Below are positions 4,992 through 54,500 of a stretch of 64,000 bases of DNA, piece by piece. This DNA is from Octopus vulgaris (Eukaryota). The stretch spans positions 52,514,001 to 52,578,000 of the forward strand of contig OX597830.1 of assembly GCA_951406725.2 (NCBI GenBank), read 5' to 3'. The notes under the pieces were generated by a model that was given only the letters and a program-made list of their open reading frames with translations, was not told where the DNA came from and did not search any database. Each line of letters starts with the position of its first letter. The first letter of the stretch is position 1. The position numbers and the translations under genes are program-made.

Positions 4992-5305
4992 TATAATATT
5001 AGGGAGTATAACTCCAAACTTACAGGAAAAAAATTCAATTTAGTATTAAATCAAATTTCACAGTATAAATATATAAAATATAAATTAGAGATAAAACCAC
5101 TATCATGCAACTCAAACAGTGATAGACATAAACCAAAACAAAAATAACAAATAATATATATTTTTTGATCATTCATTTTTATACTTTTTGAGATCTAGTT
5201 ATAAGTTATATGTTTTATAAAAATATATATTATTTGTTATTTATGTTTTGATTTATGTCTATCACTGTTTGAGTTGCATAATAGTAGTTTTATCTCTAAT
5301 TTATA
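4992..5305. mobile_element. Hairpin + tail element with ~80-bp inverted arms
   Basis: 5079-5160 is the reverse complement of 5224-5305 with a few mismatches. One-sided extension at 4992-5078; (TA)n flank. Confidence 0.7.
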
Positions 5306-6167
5306 AATTATATATATATATATATCCTTCGAAACGTAGAATAGATGAAACCTTAGCAACTGAAGAAGGGGTTTTTTTGTTGTGTTAATTGTCCTGTACT
5401 CCATTTTTTGTTGTTTTTAAAAAAAATGTCCTGTTCCTTTGGTTTGTGTCTATGTTTTCGTTTCTCTTTGTGTTCGACGTCCCTTTGGTGTCCTGTACTC
5501 ATATATGCGTGTATATGTACATGTAGAGGTAGGTACGTACATATATGTTTATATATATGCATATGTTTTATTTCATTTATTAATGTATATATATATATAT
5601 ATACACGCACACACACACACATACACACCCACATCATGGAGTTGCGATGATGGTTTTACCTTCTGAGTCCTACATTACCCCTTTGCCAGCTAGTCTTCAT
5701 GCAAAAGCTGCTCTGAAGTGGACATCTGGGGGAGGGGACTTTCAAAGAAAGCCTCAAAAACATAAGGATCTGTTAAGCAGGAGTGACCACCCTAGCAGAT
5801 TTCATTGCTGTTTTCAGTGTCTCACAACTTAGGAAGATTTAAGTCACACTTACTCTCTCTCTCTCTCCCCACCTCTCTCTCCCCTCTCTCTCTCTCTCTC
5901 TCTCTCTCTCTGTATATATTTTTGTGTGTGTGAGTACGCGTGTATATATATATATATATATATATACACGCACACACGTGCCTATGTAATGTACGTATTA
6001 TATATATACATACATACATATATATATATATATACACATACTTATACATGTATGTACTGTATGTATTATATAAAATACACATATATTTATACATACATAT
6101 GTATGTGCACATGTGTGTGTATGTGTGTATAATGATATATATATATATATATATATATATATATATA

Positions 6168-6283
6168 CTTTATTTAAAGCAGCAGAAAATTTTCTGCTGC
6201 TTTAAATAAAGCATATTACTCTACCACTGGTATTTGAGTACTCTTTTTTCCCACCTTGTTTCACATTTATGTGTTTACTCCGG
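6168..6283 (+). mobile_element. Hairpin + tail element (perfect 44-bp palindrome plus tail) in (TA)n
   Basis: CTTTATTTAAAGCAGCAGAAAA|TTTTCTGCTGCTTTAAATAAAG, then tail TATTACTCTACCACTGGTATTTGAGTAC...TTTACTCCGG. Same family at 16812-16969 and 43990-44185. Confidence 0.8.
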
Positions 6284-8154
6284 TATATATATATATATAT
6301 ATATATATATATATATATATATGTGTGTGTGTGTGTGTGTGTGTGTGTGTATGTATCATTATACACACATACATGCATAATCATTCTCTGTCATTTGCTC
6401 TAGCCAATGATGGTGATGTTTTTGTTGAGTGCAGTAACTGTGTACGGTGCCAAACTAAGAGCTGAAAGATGAAGTTAATGGTGTGGAAACTGTAAATGAT
6501 TTGATGCAATATGTTGTGGCTGCTGCTGCTGCACTCGACACATGCAACTGTTGCATGACAGTGGTTGCTGCAGCGTGGTCCTTTAGTTGTAGCAGTTGTA
6601 GTAGTAATAGTGGCGGTGGTGGTGGGAGTATTGGGAAGGATGTGAGTGCACAAGTGTTTTGATTGGCTATTTCTGTGTCATAGAATCACTCAAGCAAAAC
6701 TGACCTTCACTACTCTACATCATCACCGACAACAATTATTACTATCACCACCACCACCACCACCACCACTACTACTTCTACTACTACTAATTCTGCTGCT
6801 GCTACTTTATAGAACTATGACAACCAACTACGACCATCTTCAAAACTATTATCACCACTACCACTAATACCATCACCACTACTATACTTAATACTCTTCA
6901 ACTCTCCAGTATATACTGGGTACTCCATGTACACTGGGTACTCTTGTACGCTCTACATATACTGAATATGCCAACCCATTCTTCACCCATTGTTCAGTTT
7001 ACTTTAAGTACTCTTGTACTCTTCAGCCACTCCTCATAAAGCATTAATTTTCTTTAAATTCAGGAGTTTACAATAGATTTGTACATTTACCAAGATGTAA
7101 AGACGTAATGCATTGTCAGAGAGAGAGACTTGGCTGCTATATTTAACACATCAATCAACAACCTGTCTCTCATTATTACTTCTCTACACTTCATTCTCTT
7201 TTCTGTTCTCTGTCTTGACATTATTAACGTTGTTGTGTCATTTGAGCTAAATTTTTTTTTGTTTCTAAATTGCTTTTAGTATTGTTTATAGTTGTTAGTA
7301 TTTTTTGTTGTTGCTATTAGCAATGTGCATCAGCATTGTTGTTGTTGTTGTGAGCAATGTGTGTTAGTATTTCTCTATTGACTTGAAGAAATCAATGCAT
7401 AAAACAAAAGTTAAAAAAAAAAAATCAATATTACTATCGATAGTCTTTCAATGATTGTATCTATATATATATTTTGGTGTTAATGTGTGTGTGTGTGTGT
7501 GTGTGTGTGTGGAGAGAGAGAGAGAAAGAGAGAGACCAACAGATTAACAGAGAGAAAAATAGATATATGCACATGTTTGTGCGTGTATGTGTATGTATAT
7601 ATGTGTATGTGTGTAGAGAGAGAGCGGGGAGGAAGAACTCGACAGGCTGACAGAGACAAATGGATAAATAGATAATGTACATGCATATATATGTTTGTGG
7701 GAGAGAGAGAGAGAGAGAGAGAGAGAGAGAAAGATGCACACATATATTTGTGTGTGTGTGTGTGTGTTTATGTATGTATATGTGTATATATATATATATA
7801 TATATATATATATATATATATATCATCATCATCATTTAACATCCGCTTTCCATGCTAGCATGGGTTGGACTTATATATATATTTATACACAGAGAGACAC
7901 ACACATTCACAGACAGGTAGAGAGAGAAAAACAGAGAGAGAGATAGGAGCATACATATGTGTGTGTATGTACACAGACTGGTCTAACCTACAGTTAATGG
8001 TTCACCAGTTATGGACACTGAAGTGTTAGTAAGAAATCAATCAGAGTTTTCTACAAATATTTCAATTGCTATCCTCATCAAGTTTCTAATTGTTCAACAT
8101 AAATATTGAAACAGCTGAACTATGTAAATATTTAAATAGCTTTAAACTGGAGGA

Positions 8155-8440
8155 TTTTAAAAGACAATATAGGGTACCCTTGAAAAATAAAGCAACGGTA
8201 AGTACCTTCAAAAGAAAACAGTAAACACCTTTAAAAGGTAACATTGTGTTACTTTTAAAAAAATGATGCCAAGTACTTTTAAAAAAACAATAGCAAGGAC
8301 TTTCGAAAGACAACAGTAAGAATTTTTAAGGAGGAACTCTGAGTATCTTTAAAAGACAATTGTAAAGAACTTTGGAAAGCAGCATTAATTACCTTCAAAT
8401 TGCAAACCCAAATACTTTTAAAAGGTAATACTAAGTATGT
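8155..8440. repeat. Degenerate ~23-bp minisatellite, about 12 units
   Basis: Units such as TTTAAAAGACAATATAGGGTACC, TTCAAAAGAAAACAGTAAACACC and TTTAAAAGGTAATACTAAGTATG. Confidence 0.6.
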
Positions 8441-8450
8441 TTAGTGAAGA

Positions 8451-52494: not shown

Positions 52495-52509
52495 ATATAT
52501 ATATATATA

Positions 52510-52865
52510 GAACAAAACATGAAATTGGACATTTTTGGTATTTATTCACCATTACATGTTTCATTTCTGAATAGGAATTACAGAGTTTTACATGTTAGGT
52601 AAGCATATAAGGAATTTCGTAATAGAAATTCTTCAGATAGAGAAATTAAACAATAACAAATAATATATTATTTAATTTCTCTGTTTGAAGAATTTCTAAT
52701 AAGAAATTCCTTATATGTCTATCTAACATTTAATACTTCGTAATTCCTATTAACAAATGAAACACATGTAATGAAGAATAAATAATACCAAAATAATTTC
52801 CATTCTCCTGTTTTGTTATACAATAATTCTGCAAATAATATTTCCATAATTCTCAATTTTTATAT
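52510..52865. mobile_element. Hairpin + tail element with ~140-bp imperfect arms, in (TA)n
   Basis: 52510-52650 pairs with 52671-52820. One-sided tail runs to (TA)n. Confidence 0.7.
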
Positions 52866-53746
52866 ATTTTTTTGAACTAACATACAGCAGCAACTGAGAC
52901 TACATATTCAATTGTAATAATAGAATAACCAAATGTGCTTCAAGAGGAAACAGCTTGAATTTACCCTAACTACCTATACTATATGTGTGTGTTAGTTTGT
53001 GTGTGTGCTAATGTATATATATTATTATCATCATTGTATGGCCATTATCCATGCTGGCATGGGTTGAACAGTTTGACAAATTCAGTGAGCAGCAGCCCTG
53101 TGCTATGCTGCTGTGTCAGCTTTGGCATGGTTTCTACAGCTGGATGCCCTTCCTCATGCCAACCACTTTACAGTGTGTATTGGGTGCTTTTTTCATGCCC
53201 CCAGGACTAGTGACTTGAAAATAAGTAACTTGAAAGGCAGAAAAAGAACAGGGAATAAGGGAAAAGGCAAAACTCCCTCTACTAAATGTGGTGGGGAGTA
53301 CTTGAGGTGGGAGAGAGCATTATGCTAAGTGTTGAAACATGAAAGCACATCTGAGCTTTTTGGCATGTGTGATCTTAGTAAGCAAAAAAGTAGCTCATAA
53401 CTTTGTTCAGGCTGTTTAATTGTTCAATGGGGAAAAAAGGATTATTACCTTGCTTCGAAACAGGTGAGGGTTGATAAAATGAAGGGCACCAGGACATAGA
53501 AAATCTATCTCTTCAATTCAATTTTGTCTGGCCCAAGCAAGCATAGAAAAATGGATATTAAAATGGTGCCAGTGACACATAAACAGAATCCATGCTGGTG
53601 ACATGTAAGAAACACACAGTACACTCTGTAAAATGGTTGGCATCAGGAAGGGCATCCAGCCATAGAAAGCAAGCCAACACAGATGACTGGAGGCTGGTGC
53701 TGCTCTCCTGCTTACAAACTCTGGTCAAACTGTCAGACCATATGGA

Positions 53747-53988
53747 CCCTGGTTCTCAACTAGGATCCCTATGGGACTTGGAGGCCTATATAAGATTTTG
53801 GTGTTAAGATTTACGTTCAATAAACTACTTATGTTTCTACAATACACAAAATGTTTTTACACAATTCCTAAAAATATTTAATCATAAAAATACAGGTGTT
53901 TTTAGACATCAAATGGTTATGAAAGTCCCACCCACTGAATAAAATAGGATTCAAAGGGGTCCACAAGTAAAAAAATGGTTGAGAGCTA
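53747..53988. mobile_element. hAT/Charlie-like MITE inside an RTE 3' end
   Basis: Termini TGGTTCTCAAC and GGTTGAGAG, with GGGGTCC subterminal motifs. Confidence 0.55.
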
Positions 53989-54024
53989 GCATTGTAAATG
54001 GACATTAAATGATGATATATATAT

Positions 54025-54500
54025 ATCTGTAAGTGTAATATGTGACAATTATTCGGTAGCCAAGATAAAACTCTGAGTTTCGGATGCCAAGGTGGAAATT
54101 CACACCACCATCTCTTCAGTTATCTGGCCATCGGAAAAACGCTATGAAAAATGACCTTCCATATTGAATTCTTCTGCGTGGTAGAGTCCTCAACCGATAT
54201 CTGGTGATTATCCAAAAAAAAGCTGTATTAGCTCTTAGGGAAGAATAGCGGCGTTCGGGAGGTAATTTACCACACAGAAGAATTCAATATGGACCAGGTC
54301 ATTTTTCAAAGCGTTTTTCCTATGGCCAGATAATTGAAGAGATGGTGGTGTGGATTTCTACCTCGGCATCCAAAACTCAGAGTTTTATCTTGGCTACCAA
54401 ATAATTGTCACATATTACATTTACAGATAAATTCCTCTATTTACATAATATTGAGGTCTCTTTCTTTCTTTTGTTATCTTACCATTTTTACCAATATATA
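54025..54500. mobile_element. Hairpin + tail element with ~160-bp arms, each carrying an HHR
   Basis: 54025-54184 is the reverse complement of 54268-54428 with ~10 substitutions and a small indel. ~80-bp spacer, tail at 54429-54495, (TA)n on both sides. Confidence 0.85.
54058..54129 (-). ncRNA. Type I hammerhead ribozyme with intact core
   Basis: Minus strand: GCCAGATAA-CTGAAGA-GATGGTGG..CCAC..CATCC-GAAA-CT-CAG-AGTT|TTATCTTGGC. Stem I AGATAA/TTATCT; cleavage triplet GUU. Confidence 0.75.

Follow-up and report, generated by a model that had tools for sequence, protein, structure and literature searches.

Head-to-head 3' ends of Penelope-like elements in an octopus genome and their probable origin from two primings

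How do unrelated families of short repeats come to share one design, a hairpin with a tail outside its inverted arms on one side only? The question is posed by a 64,000-nucleotide (nt) stretch of Octopus vulgaris DNA (assembly GCA_951406725.2, contig OX597830.1, positions 52,514,001 to 52,578,000, forward strand), hereafter the window, in which a preliminary description from the sequence alone had noted eight such loci. With a probability of roughly 0.7, these hairpins are 3' ends of 5'-truncated Penelope-like elements (PLEs), joined head to head and built by two primings at two fixed RNA sites. The evidence is a near-obligate pairing of one tailed with one tail-less end, observed across loci retrieved without regard to the tail, together with inner junctions that differ between copies, alleles shared by the arms of one insertion and inserts whose pieces do not overlap. 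The loci are labelled by starting position (A 4995, B 6168, C 16812, D 17018, E 28800, F 43975, G 52510, H 54025) and comprise the following pieces.

4995-5321, locus A: family A stub, with a tail at 4995-5063 (~69 nt) and an arm on the minus strand to 5165
5159-5321, plus strand: second piece of A, longer and tail-less, joined head to head
6168-6283, locus B: family C stub, with a ~20-nt tail-less arm on the minus strand; within (TA)n
6213-6283, plus strand: 71-nt tail of the second piece of B, which consists of arm and tail
16812-16969, locus C: family C stub in (TA)n; tail and arm 16812-16931 on the minus strand, tail-less arm 16918-16969 on the plus strand
17018-17332, locus D: inverted short piece 17018-17058, and a sense piece ending at 17332
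28800-29240, locus E: family E stub, with a ~38-nt tail and arm on the minus strand and a tail-less arm on the plus strand
43975-44182, locus F: older subfamily of C; hammerhead core from 44050, arm and tail on the plus strand, decayed inverted arm on the left
52510-52980, locus G: family G stub; tail-less arm 52510-52655 on the minus strand, arm and 160-nt tail 52660-52980 on the plus strand
54025-54494, locus H: family H stub in (TA)n; tail-less arm on the minus strand, arm and 66-nt tail (54429-54494) on the plus strand
40774-40916: member of family G without a hairpin, absent from the preliminary description; inverted tail-only piece 40774-40870 and non-overlapping tail-less arm end 40868-40916

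The one-sided tail was borne out at all eight described loci and is strong at A, B, C, G and H. The inverted arms measure 102 nt in A (93%), ~150 nt in G and 137 nt in H (93%), and are weak in F (74% over 46 nt) and D (42 nt, 86%); the idea that the F arms come from two subfamilies was dropped, these arms being too decayed to judge. The end of G, placed at 52865 in the preliminary description, is corrected here, its tail (160 nt) reaching ~52980. Because B, C and F have a common tail, and the consensus ends of C, H, A, G and E show no mutual alignment bar one weak 30-nt match between A and E, six lineages are counted (A, B/C/F, D, E, G and H), in keeping with the earlier estimate of at least five families of one design.

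Pairing of tailed and tail-less ends

Searches covered the whole 2.8-Gb, 227-contig assembly; first-look candidates numbered hundreds to thousands per family, and per search 40 candidates were scored and the best 20-30 fetched, of 200-4400. For the tail-blind sets, which include the query's own copy, queries held arms only and were chosen to avoid selecting tails, and ends were scored at two fixed sites. Tailed ends were paired with tail-less ends in 16/17 insertions of family C (p = 1.4e-4 against 0.5, the highest tail/no-tail rate under independent choice) and, as scored by script, in 13/14 of H and 13/13 of G; with borderline ends read by eye, the counts are 15/16 and 16/17. Pooled over all tail-blind, two-ended insertions, the pairing holds in 46/50 (p = 2e-10). 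The ends of G act like those of the other families, with tail/no-tail pairing and variable junctions. In three family C copies (L127, L147 and L292; loci fetched from the assembly carry the prefix L), ~20 nt stand beyond the usual tail end and form a common small stem-loop, with the inner stem and without the outer GAG pairing, which suggests a third, rarer start site in this family.

Outer ends are fixed to within a few bases, and inner junctions are distinct in 52/55 copies of C, 33/33 of A and 24/24 of G, as well as in 23/23 of H, where the count is partly an effect of a short reference. Since the junctions differ from copy to copy, the hairpin is made anew at each insertion. Microhomology of at least 2 nt is present at 58% of 38 insert-free C junctions, compared with 20% after permutation, and 15/53 C junctions carry extra bases. 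Several C junctions are perfect palindromes centred on hammerhead helix III, 3/55 with identical geometry.

The two arms of an insertion also resemble each other in their rarer variants. Non-consensus alleles per site are shared more often between own arms than between cross pairs in C (0.0137 and 0.0034), H (0.0172 and 0.0053), A (0.0244 and 0.0067) and G (0.0192 and 0.0094), that is, two to four times the cross-pair rate, an excess matched by 0/2000 permutations in each of the four families. Most shared alleles are present in other copies (in C, 4/39 are private), and the divergence between own arms is 6-8% in C, H and A and 19% in G. The excess persists in arms separated by at least 100 nt, for which H offers 10 loci and A 7, and this favours a shared template over conversion.

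Neither piece is consistently the longer, and the two need not overlap. A tailed piece without overlap of the other arm is found at window positions 40774-40916, in L317 and in L430; the tail-less side carries kilobases of coding sequence beside a tailed side of ~200 nt in L112, L123 and L457, and the reverse arrangement is present in L040/L337.

Coding regions and hammerhead motifs

The preliminary description had derived the hairpins from PLEs as 5'-inverted pseudo-long terminal repeat (pLTR) products, and both the link and the origin are supported by longer copies of A, B/C and H, which extend from the repeat end through a 0.9-2.5-kb 3' untranslated region (UTR) into a Hydra-type open reading frame (ORF). 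In A, B/C/F and H, a reverse transcriptase (RT) followed by a C-terminal GIY-YIG endonuclease (EN) is continuous with the repeat end, in decayed pieces only. For example, H copies L112 and L123 hold RT and GIY-YIG pieces flanked by one tailed and one tail-less end, C copies L355 and L459-L462 join the stub to EN via ~1.4 kb of shared AT-rich UTR, and A copies L455, L456, L457 and L458 join the end to the ORF via a UTR of ~2.5 kb. L457 is near full length, with RT/EN between a tailed and a tail-less end and no direct upstream pLTR seen. ORF pieces of PLEs near G, E and some C or A loci (L349, L354, L346, L133 and L202) lack continuity with the repeat and were for that reason set aside as neighbours or targets.

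The Pfam GIY-YIG match is weak (E 0.014, below cut-off), the C EN matched nothing in Pfam or in a PDB sequence search, and a protein search with it matched two relatives. Translations show the CxCx5C linker, no cysteine pair inside GIY-YIG, and CxxC/CxH around E/N, with deviations in one C copy (DxC for CxxC) and one H copy (YPH for CxH). Of the Hydra motifs DKT (for DKG) and RWK, H carries DKT and the A pieces read DKL and VKWK. The N-terminal region of the C ORF was not recovered in the copies retrieved, and, compared by eye, the motifs of the H RT agree one for one with those of Hydra-1_Obim. On these translations, A, B/C/F and H are very probably PLEs, and their coding pieces appear, from motifs and comparison by eye, to be Hydra-type. 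The stubs of A, B/C and H are extreme 5' truncations of full-length PLEs set head to head, a structure already published. The proposal of a general class of small elements therefore does not hold for these families, but it fits E and probably D. In L455 (2921-3830, plus strand), the family A ORF carries an insert rich in asparagine ahead of the EN linker, like the N-rich inserts described for rotifer Penelope ORFs. Two decayed Hydra-type GIY-YIG pieces of another family lie in the window at 2262-2643 and 13917-14228 (both plus strand); beyond the latter come a UTR, a hammerhead-like core starting at 14421 and a (TA)n tract at 14537.

As had been noted, the elements are not ordinary terminal inverted repeat (TIR) miniature inverted-repeat transposable elements (MITEs): symmetric TIRs without a PLE ORF were not found for A, B/C and H, and the combination of symmetric TIRs, a fixed interior and a fixed short target duplication is present only in the element that hosts E. 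Thousands of MITE-like or microRNA-like hairpin repeats should accordingly be annotated as PLE ends. An early impression of E itself as a TIR element was discarded, the query 29161-29400 having mostly recovered the host MITE and not the hairpin family. The surroundings of E are layered as follows.

28770-29450: TTAA-bounded MITE hosting E, with short terminal repeats, separate from the hairpin-tail element and presumably piggyBac-like
28787-28799 and 29236-29248: 13-bp direct repeat flanking E, ~5 nt of it common to the element end
28946-29159, plus strand: abundant repeat resembling a short interspersed element (SINE) in the E loop, with a 21-bp target duplication (28925-28945/29160-29180, one mismatch)

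The 288-nt 'loop' of E is thus mostly SINE. Family E is arranged in tandem in 11/30 loci, at a spacing of 331-355 nt or about twice that, and carries a minimal type I hammerhead; D is an old tandem repeat of ~330 nt at 75-80% identity, its tandems seen by eye, with a decayed hammerhead motif. ARAGORN found no tRNA head in two E sequences. Judged by repeat structure and ribozyme motif, E is made of retrozyme-like ~330-350-nt hammerhead tandem units, and D is probably an older unit of the same kind. More decayed copies of families D and E lie at window positions 745-867 and 63849-63953.

Hammerhead motifs had been reported in or near the loops of several loci. This stands for H, which is complete, for F, which has the core, and for C, with the 3' half in the loop. 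In H, a type I core with helices lies in the left arm (minus strand, 54119 to ~54066) and the right arm has core changes; the core strings of G lack helices I and III and are unconvincing as a hammerhead. None of the window copies of A, B and E contains an intact hammerhead and their families carry one further upstream; from the copies of A and E it is missing because the motif lies upstream of the junction. A type I hammerhead near the 3' end is predicted, from motif and helices by inspection, in the A, B/C/F and H families, and in most C copies the motif reads CCGACGA. Of the 110 hits of an Rfam scan at E of at most 1, none was to a hammerhead family; microsatellite-driven microRNA and small nucleolar RNA matches were below cut-off. 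The C template would have been uncut at the ribozyme site, because 90/110 C arms extend beyond it; arms ending at the site were considered and rejected, with only 7/110 within 2 nt and no pile-up. At one family C end (L143:1380-1607), RNA reads from a related organism are equal on both strands and show A>G and T>C differences of a kind seldom found in a DNA-like run of another organism, a pattern that resembles double-strand editing and, there being no matched DNA, is not evidence of it.

Two primings and their rivals

Two RNA-templated priming events are probable, and the likely course of insertion, which we infer rather than demonstrate, would be as follows. Target strands, mostly in (TA)n, would be nicked in a staggered fashion. 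One complementary DNA (cDNA) would start at the distal RNA site and include the tail, the other at the internal site and omit it, possibly on one RNA held by a predicted protein dimer. Both cDNAs would be copied toward the RNA 5' end and stop early, and their 3' ends would anneal via microhomology of 2-7 nt, in many cases within helix I of the hammerhead or its palindromic helix III, before repair. Overlap of the two cDNAs would give the hairpin; on one RNA, this would require displacement of the first cDNA by the trailing RT. The same machinery would also move E and D, as non-coding tandem units with a hammerhead, in trans. That both primings took place on a single RNA is a little short of an even chance.

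A candidate signal for the internal start lies just 3' of it.

54434-54458, plus strand: bulged hairpin of family H, beginning 5 nt after the tail-less end point

Its layout is NCTC, a 4-bp stem, a loop, the stem, a 2-3-nt bulge and GAGN, followed by a pyrimidine tract. Family C has a bulged hairpin of other base pairs at 6218 (plus strand) and 16876 (minus strand), and the start lies 5-6 nt past the tail-less end in C and H; the descriptor gives 0.3 chance matches per shuffled window. The same fold, with other pairs, was seen by eye at the 3' ends of Hydra-2_Amil (coral) and Hydra-2_Ajap (sea cucumber) and imperfectly in Hydra-1_Crog; the printed sequences of Hydra-1_Obim and Hydra-1_Ajap did not show it. 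At the corresponding place, A has a plain hairpin. This hairpin likely positions the RT. A stronger version, in which a dimer grips one RNA at a coral-to-octopus hairpin and every insertion is a programmed inverted pair of tailed and tail-less ends, is tentative; if true, such programmed twin priming would explain the inverted pLTR and its tail, and would provide a minimal cis-signal borrowed by retrozymes.

One RNA with strand displacement is the simplest account of the pairing, and its close rival places the two primings on two RNAs, or on two pLTR units of a tandem transcript, so that each subunit of an asymmetric dimer would use its own; cis preference would draw both from one source. Rather unlikely as it stands, this arrangement would produce overlapping arms without strand displacement and fits the allele sharing equally well; PLEs are transcribed as tandems (PMC11167929) and E is tandem in the 11/30 loci given above. 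It needs, however, an extra rule for subunits that nearly always choose different sites, and the near-full-length A copy L457 lacks a visible direct upstream pLTR. Self-priming of a single cDNA by fold-back, with copying to a hairpin and trimming of the tail from one end by the endonuclease, is improbable as the general route. Fold-back was proposed by Arkhipova et al. 2013 (PMC3846280) and agrees with the palindromic helix III junctions of C, including the three of identical geometry, with junction microhomology and with shared alleles. But it is excluded where pieces do not overlap and where either side can be the long one, and thus can yield neither 40774-40916, L317 and L430 nor the long tail-less and short tailed copies (L112, L123 and L457) alongside the reverse L040/L337, and the shared alleles are mostly subfamily ones rather than private. 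Fold-back may be limited to some palindromic junctions. The prospect that fixed hairpin elements (MITE-like elements, foldback DNA transposons or master hairpin RNAs) are copied whole, with the TA flanks as expanded target duplications, is very remote: high copy number (1800-4400 first-look candidates), small size and the one TTAA-bounded MITE at locus E speak for it, whereas junctions differ in nearly all copies, the ends are asymmetric, longer copies enter PLE ORFs and the duplications that can be seen measure 12-13 bp. At E, the MITE is a host and not the hairpin, and for A, C and H the model is refuted.

Several observations weigh against the two-priming reading. Locus counts are skewed to query-like copies because only the best-scored candidates were fetched, and insertions whose partner end is missing or truncated within 1.5 kb were excluded (C 12/29, H 14/30, G 13/30). 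A tail is present at both ends in L011, L199, L292 (one end of which reaches ~20 nt further) and 2/13 inverted E loci, and at neither end in L458, L443 and perhaps L318. A continuous ORF link was found neither for G, where the upstream walk ended in low-complexity DNA, nor for E (the neighbouring ORF in L346 is separate) or D. Far-apart arms are too few in G (3 loci, without sharing) and C (2 loci); allele sharing cannot separate one RNA from two of one source, and old conversion may have contributed. Microhomology in A is marginal (54% against 29%, p = 0.045, n = 13). The bulged-hairpin descriptor was drawn from C and H post hoc and fails for A, E and G, and minimum free energy z-scores for whole-tail folding, from -1.8 to +0.3, are weak and not significant. 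Finally, no empty target site was seen among the loci examined, and TA targeting and post-insertion TA growth are therefore not separated.

Known systems, targets and neighbouring repeats

Much of this architecture has precedents. Inverted pLTRs, the one-sided tail and (TA)n targeting are already published (PMC8557442, PMC3846280, PMC11167929). The Hydra clade of PMC8557442 is EN+, with a C-terminal GIY-YIG without CCHH, the CxCx5C linker, CxxC/CxH and DKT, and includes Hydra-1_Obim of Octopus bimaculoides, with a (TA)n preference. The present families resemble this clade in the type I hammerhead near the 3' end, (TA)n insertion and the EN and linker motifs; unlike Hydra-1_Obim, for which the paper lists 'no pLTR', they have longer 3' UTRs (0.9-2.5 kb). 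A search for five short end motifs (from C, H, A, G and E) in the PMC8557442 supplement brought up none of them in the portion searched, where line breaks could mask a match, and the accessible part of that paper offers no end-pairing counts, which the present analysis does. As in the inverted pLTRs of PMC3846280, ends are head to head with one tail and palindromes at the junction; target duplications there are ~10 bp. Published tails measure 30-40 nt, a range that the ~38 nt of E fit; those of C, H and A (66-71 nt) and of G (160 nt) are longer. Pairing is near-obligate here whereas the one-sided tail is optional in PMC3846280 and PMC8557442. The whole insert is a hairpin in many of these loci because both pieces are often shorter than 200 nt.

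Biochemically, PAc Poseidon protein cuts and extends both strands in vitro at an AT-rich target, and RT starts at two internal sites bounding the tail, on an uncut RNA template and with a predicted dimer (PMC11167929). In the accessible part of that study, start sites do not differ between strands and inverted inserts are unexplained; the genomic pairing counts, unlike those strand data, imply coupling of start-site choice within one event. E and D resemble metazoan non-LTR retrozymes (PMC7229834; 10.64898/2026.07.22.740005) in their tandem type I hammerhead unit without an ORF, and differ from them in also inserting head to head with a one-sided tail. Non-LTR retrozymes are delimited by a 150-450-nt tandem unit with a type I hammerhead and no ORF, which describes both E and D. 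Twin priming in L1 likewise involves two primings from opposite target strands, with the inversion joined by microhomology; its second site is variable and its pieces do not overlap, whereas here both sites are fixed and pieces usually overlap. Eulor and UCON repeats, considered as a lead on hairpins with tails, found no support in the accessible part of PMC5753468.

The families are new PLE members, and what they add is the pairing rule, the allele sharing, the non-overlapping inserts and the hairpin near the internal start. The origin of inverted pLTRs, the tail and the microsatellite bias were named as open questions by Craig et al. 2021 (PMC8557442), and a literature search, with many subscription papers outside its reach, found no statement of the pairing rule, of PLE twin priming or of the bulged hairpin. 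These four additions make an open PLE mechanism directly testable, with an assay supplied by Frangieh et al. 2024 (PMC11167929).

The abutment of TA microsatellites described earlier recurs at six of the eight loci (all but E and F), with a TA run of at least 8 nt within 20 nt of at least one end, compared with 4.7% of random window positions. E sits inside the TTAA-bounded MITE and not in (TA)n. Among loci with both ends found, the proposed enrichment appears on at least one flank in 52/55 copies of C, 23/23 of H, 29/33 of A and 13/24 of G (null 4.7%) and on both flanks in 37/55, 18/23, 9/33 and 3/24 (null 0.9%), with imprecise boundaries in A and G. Target duplications of 12-13 bp were seen at L133, L015 and window locus E. 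In family A, (ATT)n/(TAA)n adjoins the tailed end in 15/33 copies (for example, L089, L099, L105 and L109) and the tail-less end in 0/33; possible causes are slippage of the RT where distal priming starts and expansion of the terminal ATT seed of the element.

Other features of the window are separate from the stubs. Directly left of G, positions 52394-52509 form a near-perfect palindrome with ~29 unique nt on each side of (TA)n. Long-range inverted pairs (3449-4665 and 40428-41966) are made by abundant SINE-like repeats and not by PLE stubs. To the right of H, 54642-54950 (plus strand) holds what we take to be a mariner-like transposase fragment. A 766-aa stop-free frame at 58145-60445 (minus strand), with an APE endonuclease, RT and a PHD-like finger, is a long interspersed element (LINE) unrelated to the hairpins.

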